This document shows positions 259 to 5,477 of a DNA stretch of 5,477 bases, one piece after another. Position numbers and translations under genes: made by a program. Under the pieces are notes generated by a model. The model was not told where the DNA came from. It saw only the letters and a list, made by a program, of their open reading frames with translations, and did no database searches. Within the stretch, counting starts at the first letter, position 1, and every line of letters begins with the position of its first letter. Origin of the DNA: a virus; the IMG/VR virus record IMGVR_UViG_3300045988_096731, positions 1 to 5,477 of that record; one strand, 5' to 3'.

Positions 259-1176
259 ATGCCATGTTATCATCCCATTCCGATGTGGTATAGTAAGGAT
301 GTGAATAAAGAAACCGGTAAACGCTCTTTGACGGCGAATTATGGTAATGCTTGGCGTCCGCTTGGTCGGCTTCCGGAGACGATTTACGTTCCGTGTGGTC
401 AGTGCGTTGGCTGCCGGCTTGAGTATAGCCGGCAGTGGGCCATGCGTTGTGTACATGAGTTTGAAATGGCCGGTCGTGTTGGATCCTTCCTCACTCTTAC
501 ATATAGTCCCGAACATTTGCCGGAAGATGGTAAAATTCATAAAGATGTTTTTCAAAAGTTCATGAAACGTCTTCGAAAACGGTTTGGCAGCGGTCTTCGC
601 TTTTTTGCTTGCGGTGAATACGGCCACAAGTTTAAAAGACCACACTATCATGCAGTTATTTTTGGCTTGCGATTCCCGGATTTAATGATCCATACAGTTA
701 AGCACGGTTTCCAGTATTATCGTAGTCCTACGCTGGAGAAGTTGTGGCCCTACGGATTCAGCCTGATCGGCAGCGTTACGTTTGAGTCGTGCGCTTATGT
801 CGCTCGCTATGTGATGAAAAAGCAAAAAGGTGATGATGTTGACGAATCTTTGCAGCCGTTTGTCTTGATGTCGCGTATGCCAGGTCTCGGTCATGATTGG
901 TACGAAAAGTATAAAAGCCAGGTTTATCCAAATGACTTTATTGTCGTCCGTGACGGTGTGACTTGTAAGCCGCCTGCGTATTATGATTCCTTGTTAGAAA
1001 AGGACGATCCTGATTTGTATGAGAAAGTCAAAAATGCCCGCCAAGACAAGTATCGTCGTGACGAGTCAATGACAACGGAAGAGTATGAAATTGCTCAGAT
1101 CCAAGAGCGGTTAAAAGCTCGCAAACTAACTAAACTTGTGCGCCAGCTGCATGACGATGTAGATATGTACGAGTAA
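259..1176 (+). CDS. VP4: Replication initiation protein VP4 (HUH rolling-circle endonuclease, phiX174 gpA family), 305 aa
   Basis: Typical gokushovirus VP4 features: N-terminal MPCYHPI, CGQCVGCRLEYSRQWAMRC, FLTLTY, and the HUH motif HYH (643..651, in RPHYHAVIFG). The two-tyrosine catalytic motif YVARY (Y codons at 796..798 and 808..810) compares with YVAKY in phiX174 A. GGAG at 245..248 lies 10 nt before the ATG. Confidence 0.95.
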   Translation: MPCYHPIPMWYSKDVNKETGKRSLTANYGNAWRPLGRLPETIYVPCGQCVGCRLEYSRQWAMRCVHEFEMAGRVGSFLTLTYSPEHLPEDGKIHKDVFQKFMKRLRKRFGSGLRFFACGEYGHKFKRPHYHAVIFGLRFPDLMIHTVKHGFQYYRSPTLEKLWPYGFSLIGSVTFESCAYVARYVMKKQKGDDVDESLQPFVLMSRMPGLGHDWYEKYKSQVYPNDFIVVRDGVTCKPPAYYDSLLEKDDPDLYEKVKNARQDKYRRDESMTTEEYEIAQIQERLKARKLTKLVRQLHDDVDMYE

Positions 1177-1192: not shown

Positions 1193-1240
1193 TGCCCCCC
1201 CCGTATGGTACTGTTGTACTAACGAGAGGGCATTTTTTTT
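1193..1240 (+). terminator. Candidate intrinsic terminator downstream of VP4: imperfect GC-based hairpin followed by T8
   Basis: The basal stem is TGCCC (1193..1197) paired with GGGCA (1228..1232), plus C1198-G1226 and C1199-G1224 with single-A bulges. The apical stem is TGGTAC (1206..1211) paired with GTACTA (1216..1221, one G-U pair), with loop TGTT. It is followed directly by TTTTTTTT at 1233..1240. The stem is interrupted, so strength is uncertain. Confidence 0.45.
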
Positions 1241-2259: not shown

Positions 2260-3972
2260 ATGTCAAAAAGAGCTACTCAGCACAGTTTTGCTATAAGCCC
2301 TCAGAATCAAGTTCCCCGGTCTTCTTTCAAGCGCTCACATACAGTAAAAACTACACTGGATGCAGGCCGGCTTGTTCCGTTTTATATTGATGAAGTTTAT
2401 CCTGGCGACACCTTTAACTGCAAGGCGACGCTTTTCGGTCGTATGGCCACGCCCATCGTTCCGGCTATGGATAATGCTTATATGGATACTTTTTTCTTTT
2501 TCGTTCCGTATCGTCTTCTTTGGAAGCACTGGAAGGAGTTTAACGGCGAAAATCCGCTTGCCGGCTATCAAAGTACAGAGTACGAAGTACCGCAGATGAC
2601 GGCCACCAATGCGCAGGTTCAGACGCTTTGGGACTATTTCGGTTTCCCGACCGATGTAAAAAATAAGCTTTCGGTTTCTGCTTTCCCTTTCAGAGCATAT
2701 TGGAAGATTTACAATGATTGGTTCCGTGACGAAAATCTTCAAAACGCTGTGTCTATCCAGACTGGCGCGCCGCTTTCTTCGACATCTTCTGAAGACGACG
2801 CTTATGGCGGCGATGCTACGCAGGATGCTACAACGGCACAGTGTTTCTATCGCGGCAAGCGTCATGATTATTTCACAAGTGCGCTTCCTTGGCCGCAAAA
2901 AGGTCCCGGCGTAGAATTACCTCTTGGTCAAACCGCTTCTGTTTCCGGCTCGCTTCCGGTTTCCGGCTTGCTTCCGGTTACTGGAGCTGTTACTATTAAT
3001 CGCCCTTCTGAGTGGACTGGCGATGGTCCCCGTCTTCTCTCACTTACTAACCATGATTCTGAACCTTCTGTTTCTGCTGTTTATACTACTGGTGGTATTC
3101 AATTTCAACCAAGAGCATATCTTGATATGTCTGTTGCAAATGGCACTGCTGATGCTTCTCATGCTACAGCTGATGCGTCAAAAGCGGTGGTTGATTTGTC
3201 AAGTGCAACGGCAATTACAATCAATAGCTTACGTTCTGCTTTTGCGCTTCAACGATTTTATGAAAAAGATGCTCGTGGTGGTACCCGATACACTGAAATT
3301 ATTCGCTCCCATTTCGGTATTATTTCGCCGGATGCTCGTTTACAGCGCAGCGAATACCTCGGCGGTGATTCAACCCCGATTATGTTCAATCCCGTGCAGC
3401 AGACTTCGTCTACCGACACTACTTCTCCGCAAGGTAACTTATCTGCGTATGCTTTGATGAGCACGCGCGTCCACGGATTTAATAAATCTTTTACAGAGCA
3501 CGGCATTGTGATTGGTTTGTGCAATATTCGCACTGATTTGAGTTATCAGCAAGGTATCAATAAGACATGGCTTAGACAAACTCGTGAAGAATTTTATTGG
3601 CCCACTTTTGCTCATCTCGGCGAACAGGCTATTCTTAACAAGGAGATTTACGCGCAGGGTACTGAGAGCGACAACCAGGTTTTTGGTTACCAAGAACGTT
3701 ATGCTGAATGCCGTTATCATCCTTCTATCATTACCGGCAAGATGCGCTCGACATATGCACAGAGTACGGATGTATGGCATTTTGCGCAAAAATTCGATGC
3801 GCTTCCCGCTCTCAATGGTGAATTTATCCAAGACCAGGCCAGCTACCAAGCTATTAAGCGTATTAGTGCGGTACAGTCTGAACCGCAGTTTTATCTTGAT
3901 GTGTATTTAGATTTAAAATGTGCTCGCCCGATGCCGGTTTACGGCGTCCCTGGCATGCTTGATCACTTCTAA
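2260..3972 (+). CDS. VP1: Major capsid protein VP1 (Microviridae F-type capsid), 570 aa
   Basis: Conserved gokushovirus VP1 blocks are present: LVPFYIDEVYPGDTF, TPIVPAMDNAYMDTFFFFVPYRLLW, FRAYWKIYNDWFRDENLQ, LRSAFALQRFYEKDARGGTRYTEIIRSHFG, and YGYQERYAE-type (here FGYQERYAECRY). AGGAG at 2245..2249 lies 10 nt before the ATG. A long variable insertion at roughly 2760..3200 corresponds to the three-fold protrusion loop. Confidence 0.97.
   Translation: MSKRATQHSFAISPQNQVPRSSFKRSHTVKTTLDAGRLVPFYIDEVYPGDTFNCKATLFGRMATPIVPAMDNAYMDTFFFFVPYRLLWKHWKEFNGENPLAGYQSTEYEVPQMTATNAQVQTLWDYFGFPTDVKNKLSVSAFPFRAYWKIYNDWFRDENLQNAVSIQTGAPLSSTSSEDDAYGGDATQDATTAQCFYRGKRHDYFTSALPWPQKGPGVELPLGQTASVSGSLPVSGLLPVTGAVTINRPSEWTGDGPRLLSLTNHDSEPSVSAVYTTGGIQFQPRAYLDMSVANGTADASHATADASKAVVDLSSATAITINSLRSAFALQRFYEKDARGGTRYTEIIRSHFGIISPDARLQRSEYLGGDSTPIMFNPVQQTSSTDTTSPQGNLSAYALMSTRVHGFNKSFTEHGIVIGLCNIRTDLSYQQGINKTWLRQTREEFYWPTFAHLGEQAILNKEIYAQGTESDNQVFGYQERYAECRYHPSIITGKMRSTYAQSTDVWHFAQKFDALPALNGEFIQDQASYQAIKRISAVQSEPQFYLDVYLDLKCARPMPVYGVPGMLDHF
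2941..2976 (+). repeat. Tandem 18-bp duplication (17/18 identical) inside the VP1 variable loop, encoding VSGSLP-VSGLLP
   Basis: gtttccggctcgcttccg (2941..2958) is followed directly by gtttccggcttgcttccg (2959..2976). Confidence 0.85.
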
Positions 3973-3988: not shown

Positions 3989-5032
3989 ATGAGTTGGTTA
4001 TCGTCGGTTGCCGGTGCTGCTCTTGGTATATGGTCGGGTAATAAATCGGCTAATGCCCAGGCTGCACTTTCGCGTGAGCAAATGCAGTGGCAATCGCAGG
4101 AAGCACAAAAAACTCGCGATTGGCAAGAAAAAATGTCTTCTACTGCTCACCAGCGTGAGATTGAAGATTTGCGTAAGGCTGGCTTGAATCCCATGCTTTC
4201 CGGCATGGGTGGCCAGGGCGCGTCTACACCTGCCGGTGCGACTGCTTCTTATTCTTCTAATGCTTATACTGGTTACGGTTCGGATGTTTCTAATGGTATC
4301 AATGCTATGACTGGTATGTATTCCGCTAAAACCAACCGAAAAATTCAGCAGCAGCAAGAAAAAAATTTGGAACAGCAAAATTTGAATCTTAGTGCAGATA
4401 CATATAAAAAGACGCAGGAAGGTCGTGCTGCATCGACTGAAGCAGATTATAAAAAGGCTATGTTAGAGACTCAGTTAGTGCAGCTACTCGCTAATGCGAA
4501 TAATTTACAGGCTAGTGCTGATTTTACAAAAGGCGTTGGCACTGCGAAAGCACAGTCTGAGATTGATAAATACAATGCTGAAACTCGGTATATTAGTGGC
4601 CCACAGACGGATGTCGCGAATGCGACGACTGCGAATCTAGGAGCGCAGACAAACCGGATTAATGCTTTACTGCCACATGAAATCGCGAAAATTGATAGCG
4701 ATATCGAAAAAAATGTACATGAAATTTTACGAATTGATTCTGAAACGAGTTTAAATCAGGTTAAAATGATGACTGAAAAGTATGTGCAAGGCGAACTTAG
4801 TGCCCGATCGCTTGTTGAGTATTTGCAAGCTAAAGGTCAGACTGAAGATAATGCGCTAAAGTTTGTAAATCGTGTGCGCGCTCAGATAGATCTAAAACAG
4901 TATCAAACTCAGAATCGCTATTCTGGTGTTACTCCGCAAGGCCCTTATGAACGTTTGGCCCGCATTCTTGGTAATGCGAAAGGTCTTGTTGATGCTTCCC
5001 CGTTTGGCCTCATCACGCAGATTCTTAAGTGA
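3989..5032 (+). CDS. VP2: Minor capsid / DNA pilot protein VP2, 347 aa
   Basis: The N-terminal region S-x-AHQREIEDLRKAGLNPML matches the hallmark VP2 motif (remembered as NTAYQR...AGLNPML). A Gly/Ala/Ser-rich segment and a long Q/N/K-rich helical region follow. AAGGAG ending at 3978 lies 10 nt before the ATG. The position after VP1 is canonical. Confidence 0.9.
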   Translation: MSWLSSVAGAALGIWSGNKSANAQAALSREQMQWQSQEAQKTRDWQEKMSSTAHQREIEDLRKAGLNPMLSGMGGQGASTPAGATASYSSNAYTGYGSDVSNGINAMTGMYSAKTNRKIQQQQEKNLEQQNLNLSADTYKKTQEGRAASTEADYKKAMLETQLVQLLANANNLQASADFTKGVGTAKAQSEIDKYNAETRYISGPQTDVANATTANLGAQTNRINALLPHEIAKIDSDIEKNVHEILRIDSETSLNQVKMMTEKYVQGELSARSLVEYLQAKGQTEDNALKFVNRVRAQIDLKQYQTQNRYSGVTPQGPYERLARILGNAKGLVDASPFGLITQILK

Positions 5033-5127
5033 TTTCGGTTTTCCCTTGATTGCCCTGTGAAATTGTTTCACTCTCGTATTAGTGGAACGGTGACGTGCTG
5101 CGGCGTTTAGTCTATCATCCCTTTCTA

Positions 5128-5156
5128 TTGACATTTTATTAGATATCTGTTAGAAT
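5128..5156 (+). promoter_or_regulatory. Near-consensus sigma70-type promoter: TTGACA, 17-nt spacer, TAGAAT with extended -10 TG
   Basis: TTGACA at 5128..5133, a 17-nt spacer at 5134..5150, and TAGAAT at 5151..5156 preceded by TGT (TGnTAGAAT). It lies in the 143-nt VP2-downstream intergenic region, 20 nt upstream of the ATG at 5176. Confidence 0.7.
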
Positions 5157-5165
5157 ACTAACAGA
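5146..5165. promoter_or_regulatory. Operator-like inverted repeat TCTGTTA-N6-TAACAGA spanning the -10 box and the predicted transcription start
   Basis: TCTGTTA at 5146..5152 is the reverse complement of TAACAGA at 5159..5165. The adjacent 8-bp palindrome AGATATCT sits at 5141..5148. The direct repeat TAGATAT occurs at 5140..5146 and 5171..5177, 31 nt apart, and the second copy overlaps the ATG. Confidence 0.45.
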
Positions 5166-5175
5166 GGTGATAGAT

Positions 5176-5340
5176 ATGAGAAAAACTCGTAGTATTTATT
5201 GTTCAGATGATGAGTACAAGCATCTGAAGATCGCATTACGTTTTATGCGCGTTTTTGATGCGCTGTCGGTTGATGACTTGTCTGATGAGCAGCGGTCTAA
5301 GTATTTCCTGGAAATCATAAAAGGAGATGATGAAGAATGA
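5176..5340 (+). CDS. Hypothetical 54-aa protein (MRKTRSIYCSDDEYKHLKIALRFMRVFDALSVDDLSDEQRSKYFLEIIKGDDEE); possible small DNA-binding (ribbon-helix-helix-like) regulator
   Basis: Hand translation gives ATG at 5176 and TGA at 5338..5340. A GAGGTGAT Shine-Dalgarno at 5164..5171 lies just upstream. The ORF starts 20 nt after a strong promoter and its stop overlaps the next ATG (ATGA). It is too short to appear in the supplied ORF track. The basic N-terminus, putative strand-helix-helix pattern and acidic tail are only suggestive of function. Confidence 0.6.
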   Translation: MRKTRSIYCSDDEYKHLKIALRFMRVFDALSVDDLSDEQRSKYFLEIIKGDDEE

Positions 5341-5432
5341 AAGTTGGTACTCCGGTCGCGTTGTTTTGTTGGCTTGTACTAGCCATTTTAGTTGTCTCCT
5401 TAGTGATTAGTATATTGGATGTTTTTTTATAA
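5337..5432 (+). CDS. Hypothetical 31-aa single-pass membrane peptide (MKVGTPVALFCWLVLAILVVSLVISILDVFL)
   Basis: The ATG at 5337 overlaps the upstream stop (ATGA). AAGGAG at 5321..5326 lies exactly 10 nt before the ATG, the same spacing as the confirmed genes. An uninterrupted hydrophobic core of about 20 residues is present. The stop TAA is embedded in the SD (TAAGGAG) of the next gene. Confidence 0.55.
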   Translation: MKVGTPVALFCWLVLAILVVSLVISILDVFL

Positions 5433-5477
5433 GGAGTTGATGTTGTATGAAACGACAAAAAATGAGTAAAAAAAAGA
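5337..5477. repeat. Terminal redundancy, right copy (identical to 1..141)
   Basis: Same as the left copy. It contains a full second copy of the 31-aa ORF (5337..5432) and the first 31 nt of the basic-protein gene (5447..5477, truncated by the window end). Confidence 0.95.

Follow-up and report, generated by a model that had tools for sequence, protein, structure and literature searches.

The stretch of viral DNA analysed here (5,477 nt; IMG/VR record IMGVR_UViG_3300045988_096731), called the window throughout, represents the complete circular genome, 5336 nt long, of a gokushovirus (Microviridae), followed by a terminal duplication of 141 nt (positions 1–141 recur as 5337–5477), and its plus strand carries all of its genes. 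Upstream of a small gene, ORF54, lies a near-consensus promoter over which short boxes of the form TCT(A/G)TT recur with a period of 11 nt, and from the alignments of related phages we conclude that these phased boxes, and not secondary structure, are under selection. The promoter is predicted to head an operon made of ORF54, ORF31, VP8 and VP4 (the replication initiator, Rep), closed by a terminator-like element; given this layout, control of the replication initiator falls under whatever acts on the boxes. The reading that we favour, though tentatively, is that the boxes are an operator array and ORF54 a candidate autoregulator of the Rep operon. If the promoter is indeed regulated, this would be the first operator array on an initiator-operon promoter known from this virus family, possibly served by a small regulator of a new kind.

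The promoter and its phased boxes

The initial annotation had named the promoter (TTGACA, a 17-nt spacer and TGnTAGAAT) the best in the genome, and this was borne out when both strands were scanned. The site agrees with the consensus at 11 of 12 positions and also has the TG, while the second-best promoter-like site, on the minus strand, reaches 10/12. By our arithmetic, a promoter this good is expected about 0.005 times per genome of 5336 nt. It has the features of a sigma-70/sigma-A promoter of the extended -10 type, namely a -35 hexamer, a spacer within 16–18 nt, a -10 with A2 and T6, and the TG; T5146 together with the extended -10 also fits the -16 motif TRTG of the Gram-positive type. 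ORF54 starts 20 nt downstream of the -10, behind a Shine-Dalgarno (SD) sequence. The sequence AGAAAGGAGGTGAT is the complement of the 3' end of 16S rRNA, and the region that follows the inverted box described below is an extended SD.

The promoter region of relatives (designated by our labels, L001 and so on) was gathered from GenBank phages, IMG/VR, metagenomes and assemblies, the nearest public genomes being microviruses from pig faeces with ~85% identity to the window. From the VP2 stop codon to VP8, these genomes carry a recombining module, different versions of which are found in genomes ~90% identical in VP1, VP2 and VP4; the ORF54 proteins of the swapped versions share 30–45% identity. 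All of the versions keep a near-consensus promoter, the spacer is almost always 17 nt, and the alignment is gapless. The distant L046 has TTGATT-16-TATAAT at the equivalent place. One IMG/VR relative (L021) has a 5-nt duplication (TTTAA) that lengthens its spacer to 22 nt and is expected to inactivate the promoter; either a misassembly or a natural down-mutation may be the cause. Overall, the conservation and the match to consensus indicate a promoter that is functional-looking and maintained.

Box positions were counted in 37 unique promoters, relative to the start of the -35. Forward TCT(A/G)TT boxes begin at -15 in 19 promoters, at -4 in 31 and at +7 in 32, less often at +18 (9/37) and +29 (1/37), and at no other position, which is a strict 11-nt phase. 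A box in reverse orientation is present at +32 to +34 in 33 of the 37. When the element is read as a site of ~9 nt (TCTRTTAGN), the inverted box likewise lies with its centre 11 bp from that of its neighbour: the centres in the window fall at 5128, 5139, 5150 (the +18 box) and, for the inverted box, 5161. Chance was assessed with 300 dinucleotide shuffles of the window genome, and three TCTRTT within 45 nt were reached in only 2 of them.

Column conservation was followed in a gapless alignment of 27 unique promoters, spanning lineages whose ORF54 proteins share only 30–40% identity. In this alignment, the spacer sequence TTCTATT (+6 to +12) matches the hexamers themselves in degree of conservation. 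Between the two main versions of the module, types A and B, it is identical at 7/7 positions and the five bases that follow at 1/5; these five (+13 to +17) read AGATA, TTAAA, TAGTG or TAATA. Sigma-70/sigma-A promoters have no known need for specified spacer bases. Every ORF54 subtype is accompanied by the array (L030, L038, L040, L043, L045, L172 and L174). In L172, a direct box at +29, in phase, takes the place of the inverted box, leaving no inverted repeat and hence no possible hairpin; because of this exchange, it is the phase that is conserved rather than the hairpin. A further box at 1266 was considered as a second operator and rejected, as it is conserved no more than its surroundings.

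Palindrome, direct repeats, hairpin and replication origin

The initial annotation had proposed an operator built of an 8-bp palindrome, two TAGATAT direct repeats and an inverted repeat, all interleaved with the promoter. Every one of these motifs is present where it had placed them, with a single correction: the inverted repeat, described as 7 bp long, has arms of 8 + 8 nt and a 4-nt loop. The shuffles separate them. The genome contains 10 palindromes of 8 bp against 24 expected, which is no enrichment. Direct repeats of 7 nt within 40 nt number 36 against 15 expected, and since they are so common along the genome the TAGATAT pair does not stand out. With arms of 8 nt and a loop no longer than 10 nt, inverted repeats are rare: the genome has three distinct ones, and a shuffle ~1. 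On these results, the promoter and the 8-nt inverted repeat exceed chance and the palindrome and TAGATAT do not.

A comparison across related microviruses, which had been suggested as a check, gave a similar picture. In close relatives the palindrome AGATATCT is replaced by AGATATAT, AGATATTT or AAGTATGT; the second TAGATAT becomes TAGACAT or TAGGTAT (TAGATATG changed to TAGACATG or TAGGTATG); and the first copy is absent outside the module type of the window. With a frequency at the level of chance and no conservation, both were rejected as operator elements, and they are by-products of the neighbouring boxes and of the SD/start region. The hairpin proved to be lineage-specific, and what the relatives keep instead are the TCT(A/G)TT boxes.

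The inverted repeat could act as a hairpin, either in a read-through RNA, where it would mask the ribosome-binding site of ORF54, or in the packaged single strand, for example as a complementary-strand origin; the left arm would fall within or ahead of the promoter and the right arm at the SD. In the window it folds at -6.6 kcal/mol (z = -5.4), and an off-phase box-like element upstream, TCTATCATCCCT, could pair over a long range with the SD region (5111–5122 with 5163–5174, 10/12). Type B pairs CTTTCTATTTAAA with TTTAAACATAGAAAG, and L046 has an unrelated inverted repeat around its -10 (TCACCACTTT and AAAGGTGGTGA) with matching geometry and the SD inside its right arm, which keeps SD masking as a minor rival. 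The perfect 8-bp hairpin, however, is confined to the sub-lineage of the window. No covariation was seen, as pair counts in nine type-A variants equal those of shuffled controls and one pair is broken in 5/9; the versions in L001 and L016 do not fold (0 kcal/mol); and the left arm of the type-B repeat is altered in L030, L040 and L043 with no compensation in the right arm. The long-range partner is likewise specific to the subtype of the window and absent from that of L001, L002 and L028. For lack of covariation, with 0 kcal/mol in close relatives and with no inverted repeat in L172, the hairpin was rejected as a conserved element, and a function in RNA or packaged DNA is very unlikely to explain the region.

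Three 11-nt direct repeats beside an inverted repeat also resemble the bind locus of pMV158 and the iterons of geminiviruses. The boxes might then serve VP4 (Rep) as iterons beside a nick-site hairpin, in the manner of pMV158 or CRESS-DNA viruses, perhaps with autoregulation by Rep as well, and VP4 does lie in the operon driven by the boxed promoter. Against this, no conserved stem-loop with a nick motif is found at 5146–5165, where the hairpin is not kept among relatives, and the boxes persist in captured copies of the region that have no VP4. A far better origin candidate is present elsewhere, and for this reason we judge origin iterons at the promoter to be highly improbable. This candidate, in the VP3–VP1 spacer (2170–2205; GGTCGTACCAGTT-CTACTTGATGT-AACTGGTACGACT), has a 13-bp stem and a single-stranded DNA fold of -13.3 kcal/mol (z = -4.0). 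Substitutions in L038 and L172 compensate each other within the stem, the loop (ACTTGATGT), which contains CTTGAT, is invariant, and positions 2164–2214 are 94% identical in very distant microviruses. We take the loop to resemble the phiX174/pC194 nick motif, and 2170–2205 is likely the plus-strand replication origin and Rep nick site.

Two other identities were considered for the promoter repeats and discarded. The best match to the dif site of E. coli or B. subtilis scores 17–18/28, equal to shuffles, and lies at 2224, outside the promoter region, which does not support a XerCD/dif site. The LexA consensus is CTGT-N8-ACAG in Enterobacteria and GAAC-N4-GTTC in Firmicutes; the window has CTGT-N10-ACAG and relatives read TATGTT...AATAGA, which is not a LexA box. 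No Rfam family was matched.

ORF54 and the candidate binders of the boxes

ORF54 has 61 homologs, nearly all on contigs of 5.2–5.7 kb, and the family is confined to this phage clade. Its N-terminal half has invariant positions (R5, S6, Y8, C9, E13, Y14, K18 and L21, in the pattern R-S-[IV]-Y-C-[ST]-x-x-E-Y-x-R-[LI]-K), while the C-terminal half is variable. A ratio of non-synonymous to synonymous polymorphism (pN/pS) of 0.17–0.37 indicates a real gene under purifying selection. AlphaFold (AF2) models reached a pLDDT of 76, and of 85.5 with a deeper alignment; in both, the 10 N-terminal residues are extended and two helices follow, an order compatible with that which a ribbon-helix-helix (RHH) monomer would show.

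According to the reading that we favour, sites of ~9 bp with the core TCT(A/G)TT, their centres 11 bp (one helical turn) apart, would extend over the -35, the spacer, the -10 and the start site. A sequence-specific protein would bind them cooperatively along one face of the DNA and exclude RNA polymerase, and this binding would throttle expression of the Rep operon. ORF54 would be the prime candidate, with its conserved basic N-terminal half touching the DNA and its variable C-terminal half having some lineage-specific task. Three points of this reading are inferred, namely the function of the boxes as protein-binding sites, the repressive effect of binding and the identity of ORF54 as the binder. 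Repeated sites at a fixed helical phase over -35, -10 and start, as in a repressor operator, are indeed found. As for ORF54, it is a candidate because it is the first gene after the array, because its conserved half co-occurs with the conserved boxes, because its N-terminus is basic, and because it is among the two or three phage genes left beside the boxes in captured copies. The boxes persist in these chromosomal copies (see below), in which only ORF54, ORF31 and, in one copy, VP8 are left of the phage genes. The idea of a regulated switch put forward in the initial annotation is supported in part, by its near-consensus promoter, by a conservation that goes beyond the needs of a promoter and by a clade-specific small ORF downstream; its palindrome, TAGATAT repeats and hairpin, not being conserved elements, drop out. 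Gokushoviruses rank with the most abundant phages of gut and environmental viromes, and to our knowledge no control of gene expression has been described in them. Regulated transcription might explain carrier-state or temperate behaviour.

Several findings weigh against this reading. The +18 box (TnTGnTA) is fully accounted for by the TRTG plus the -10 consensus and the inverted box abuts the extended SD, so only the boxes at -15, -4 and +7 are independent evidence. The 37 promoters are phylogenetically related, so they do not count as independent samples and stand for perhaps 5–8 deep lineages. TCTATT boxes are missing from the most distant homolog, L046, whose VP4 is 49% identical. The protein itself is net acidic. 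It has no match among Pfam, PHROG, NCBIfam or PADLOC families; a sequence and profile search of the PDB gave no relative; Foldseek with both models against PDB and BFVD gave no match below E = 1 and no RHH among the matches; and hhalign against Arc, Mnt, CopG, ParD and NikR returned a probability of 0.1%. With all of these comparisons negative, the RHH assignment was rejected. No DNA-binding fold, RHH or other, was recognized, and the earlier description of the 54-aa ORF as a candidate DNA-binding protein finds no support from family, profile or fold; what ORF54 has of an autorepressor is its position as first gene of the operon.

The coincidence of the +18 box with the TRTG/-10 consensus would also suit boxes that are intrinsic to the promoter, tuning RNA polymerase through spacer or upstream contacts or through bending, derived from slippage duplication of an 11-mer and serving constitutive expression as in phiX174. 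L038 shows a fresh 11-mer duplication (ATCTATTGATA ATCTATTGACA), and tandem 11-mers containing TCTATT abound in unrelated viral contigs: a scan of viral contigs for three phased boxes returned such unrelated tandem 11-mers, with two members of the family among the 80 loci listed. The absence of a recognizable regulator points the same way. We nevertheless consider this account unlikely, since a run of seven spacer bases has stayed conserved in deep lineages as the adjacent bases drifted, and since the box after the -10 either flips or stays direct with its phase kept, which suits a bound protein more than polymerase contacts.

The same cis evidence would serve equally for a binder other than ORF54, either a host factor that reads direct repeats phased by 11 bp (of the OmpR/PhoB or MraZ type) or another phage protein, for example VP5 or VP8, in which case ORF54 would have a different role, perhaps as a host-interaction or anti-defence protein. 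ORF54 has no DNA-binding signature, and its hypervariable C-terminal half, in a module swapped between ~90%-identical genomes, is typical of host-interaction genes. This explanation is doubtful on several counts: the boxes persist in chromosomal copies that lost VP4 and VP5; the single host promoter seen beside a captured copy has no such boxes; no host factor is known to have a consensus that fits TCTRTT; and the array and the ORF54 family co-occur in every lineage examined with the exception of L046, the only box-less genome, which also has the most divergent ORF54. The divergence of VP4 was considered as a means of telling binding by Rep from binding by ORF54, and was uninformative, as L046 is distant in every gene.

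Operon neighbours, captured copies and known systems

The features of the window are given in Table 1.

Table 1. Features of the window, with coordinates, strand and remarks; box and column positions (-4, +7, +18) are counted from the start of the -35
Feature	Position	Strand	Remarks
VP8-like basic protein, 37 aa	111–224	+	phrog_10695, E = 6.6e-8
VP4/Rep, replication initiator	259–1176	+	final operon gene; 'Similar to VP4' annotations; PF23343 REP in homologs
GC-rich hairpin then T8	1193–1240	+	intrinsic-terminator-like; directly after VP4 stop
VP5	1399–1677	+
VP3	1562–2098	+
VP1	2260–3972	+
VP2	3989–5032	+
Non-coding stretch, 143 nt			3' of VP2, ahead of ORF54
Upstream off-phase box-like element TCTATCATCCCT	5111–5122	+	10/12 complementary to 5163–5174 (SD region)
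Box at -4, TCTATTGAC	5124–5132	+	TCTA plus first -35 bases; TCTATT starts at -4 in 31/37
-35 hexamer, TTGACA	5128–5133	+	TTGAC(A/T) or TTGATA kept in 37 unique relatives
Box at +7, TTTATTAGA	5135–5143	+	inside spacer; TCTATTAGA or TCTATTTAA in most relatives; 32/37
TAGATAT direct repeats	5140–5146 and 5171–5177		second overlaps ATG 5176
8-bp palindrome AGATATCT	5141–5148
Inverted repeat, 8+8 nt, 4-nt loop	5146–5165		TCTGTTAG (5146–5153), AATA, CTAACAGA (5158–5165)
Box at +18, TCTGTTAGA	5146–5154	+	left arm of inverted repeat; coincides with TRTG/-10 consensus
Extended -10, TGnTAGAAT	5148–5156	+	TG 5148–5149, TAGAAT 5151–5156; columns +18 to +28 highly conserved
Inverted box ACTAACAGA (reverse complement TCTGTTAGT)	5157–5165	-	right arm of inverted repeat, over predicted start site
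Shine-Dalgarno GAGGTG, within AGAGGTGAT	5164–5169	+	conserved in all module types
ORF54, 54 aa	5176–5340	+	first operon gene, ATG-started; orphan family, purifying selection
ORF31, hydrophobic 31-aa peptide	5337–5432 (= 1–96, terminal duplication)	+	start overlaps ORF54 stop (ATGA)

The terminator-like hairpin that closes the predicted operon has an RNA fold of -22.3 kcal/mol (z = -3.3) and is conserved as far as the distant L046; just ahead of it, an 18-nt perfect palindrome (AAATGTCATTTGACATTT, 1175–1192) spans the VP4 stop. Purifying selection (pN/pS 0.23–0.30) acts on ORF31 (MKVGTPVALFCWLVLAILVVSLVISILDVFL), a conserved hydrophobic peptide of the single-pass type that has homologs in relatives and in the chromosomal copies. 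It is a candidate for a lysis or superinfection-exclusion function, neither of which is known from gokushoviruses. A type II toxin-antitoxin system, with ORF54 as antitoxin and ORF31 as toxin, was considered by looking for always-paired, overlapping small genes under an autoregulated promoter. The ATGA overlap and the pairing are found in the window as well as in each of the three chromosomal copies; in L172 and L043, the gap from the ORF54 homolog to VP8 either is too short for an ORF31 or has none called.

The slot downstream of the promoter is a hotspot for accessory genes. L003 and L040 (2870–3010) have an extra ORF between the boxed promoter and the ORF54 homolog, that of L003 being Cys-rich (MKWYAYYCDLG...). 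A non-coding element of ~70 nt (CTTGATTGCC...CGTATTAGTGGAACGGTGACGT...GGCGTTTAG; window 5044–5112) occurs as one copy per genome where present, at varying locations: upstream of the promoter in the window, L001, L002 and L005, and in the VP4–VP5 spacer in L003 and L004. L006, L007, L038 and L043 lack it, and L006 and L007 carry a different insert, of ~150 nt, between VP8 and VP4, with repeated CCTGGTTAGC(C/T)ATGTTTT. Between the VP2 stop and the boxes, L034, L038, L045, L171, L172 and L174 have a GC-rich hairpin (e.g., CGCGCGCAATAAAATGCGCG then TGATGTTAAAAA), whose outline (GTCT..CGCG..GCG..TGAT) is loosely similar to the type I-E-like CRISPR repeats on either side of the captured cassettes; the hairpin may be no more than a terminator.

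The promoter-ORF54-ORF31 cassette was also found in bacterial chromosomes, in three contexts. In two of them it stands intact, where a spacer would be, in different type I-E-like CRISPR arrays (repeats GTATGCCCCGCATGCGCGGGGATGATCC and GTCTTTCCCGCGTAAGCGGGGGTGATCC): L168 1108–1700 (also L169 and L170), where the unit is 345 nt in an array with a period of 61 nt, and L171 1–418, where it is 389 nt. Copies in the arrays agree at 99.8% between three samples, show ~78–82% identity to the nearest free phage among those collected and have intact ORFs; near-identity in three samples, divergence from the phage and intact ORFs argue against an assembly chimera. In the chromosomal copies the -35 has decayed to TTGGTA or TTAACA and the TCTATT boxes are kept. 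Neighbouring CRISPR spacers were compared with the captured cassette for a CreA-like guide, and none was found, the longest shared word being 9 nt.

The third context is a remnant between LysR-type genes (L034 7668–8392, also L035–L037; contigs with the protein reach 385 kb), which holds the C-terminal tail of VP2, the boxed promoter, ORF56, ORF31 and VP8. This island has 38% GC, against 50% in the left flank, and its layout fits a deleted prophage with an attachment site between VP8 and VP4. The neighbouring DprA, ComM, PPK/PPX and DUF348-G5-3D look Firmicute-like, and the neighbours as a whole (GlgD, a YabE-like protein, DprA/ComM), along with the style of the promoter and SD, point to a probable Firmicute host. 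Scans of genome contigs for prophages or hosts gave no matches in one case and two chance matches in Flavobacterium in the other.

An intact cassette inside CRISPR arrays suggests a function of consequence to bacteria too. An extended form of the favoured reading, which we regard as quite unlikely, has ORF54 as the first member of a new family of very small repressors whose fold is unrepresented among solved structures. Such a repressor would recognize the 11-bp-phased TCTRTT array and so determine how strongly the Rep operon is expressed. Bacteria would have captured the cassette at least three times, twice as an oversized CRISPR 'spacer', where it would provide repressor- or exclusion-type immunity against these phages or be an addiction module that protects the CRISPR locus. 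If true, gokushoviruses would have a genuine transcriptional switch.

In the literature searched, no regulator or regulated promoter of Microviridae is described, in agreement with the remark in the initial annotation that gokushoviruses have no dedicated regulators. Phages of the phiX174 type and EC6098 belong to the same family and share the gene set VP4, VP5, VP3, VP1, VP2 and VP8. In relatives of EC6098 the VP2–VP8 region is also a variable hotspot, and the paper names no repressor ('repressor' has no occurrence in it and 'promoter' one, in a cited title) (PMC7062461). Their genomes, however, are of 4.0–4.7 kb and have a non-coding region able to carry a dif motif, whereas the present clade has the promoter-ORF54-ORF31 module instead and no dif-like site.

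As for the grammar of the sites, direct repeats with a period of 10–11 bp at the -35 are also seen with MraZ at the dcw promoter, in OmpR/PhoB boxes and with lambda CII (TTGC-N6-TTGC). CII and PhoB activate weak promoters, whereas the promoter here is near consensus, and the folds concerned (AbrB-like, winged helix and helix-turn-helix tetramer) were not detected here. The omega heptads, the Arc/Mnt operators of P22 and the met-boxes of MetJ are likewise short sites (7–11 bp) repeated over a promoter, whose orientation is interchangeable at fixed spacing, as between L172 and the other relatives. Their binders are all RHH proteins, with periods of 7–8 bp (omega, MetJ) or half-sites 11 bp apart (Arc), and no homology to ORF54 was detected. 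The arrangement of the genes also has a parallel, since MraZ is encoded at the head of the operon that it regulates (PMC12957436).

The system closest in logic is Pcr-CopG-RepB of pMV158, with omega-heptad or MraZ-type arrays closest in site grammar. In pMV158, CopG binds its sites cooperatively on one face of the DNA. CopG is an RHH protein acting on a pseudo-symmetric element, whereas ORF54 gives no RHH signal and the putative sites described here are mainly direct repeats with a period of 11 bp. Both systems have a strong promoter with repeated sites over -35 to -10, and a small first-gene protein (~45–55 aa) in an operon with an HUH initiator. In pMV158, copG and repB are co-transcribed from Pcr and CopG blocks RNA polymerase (PMC2724298).

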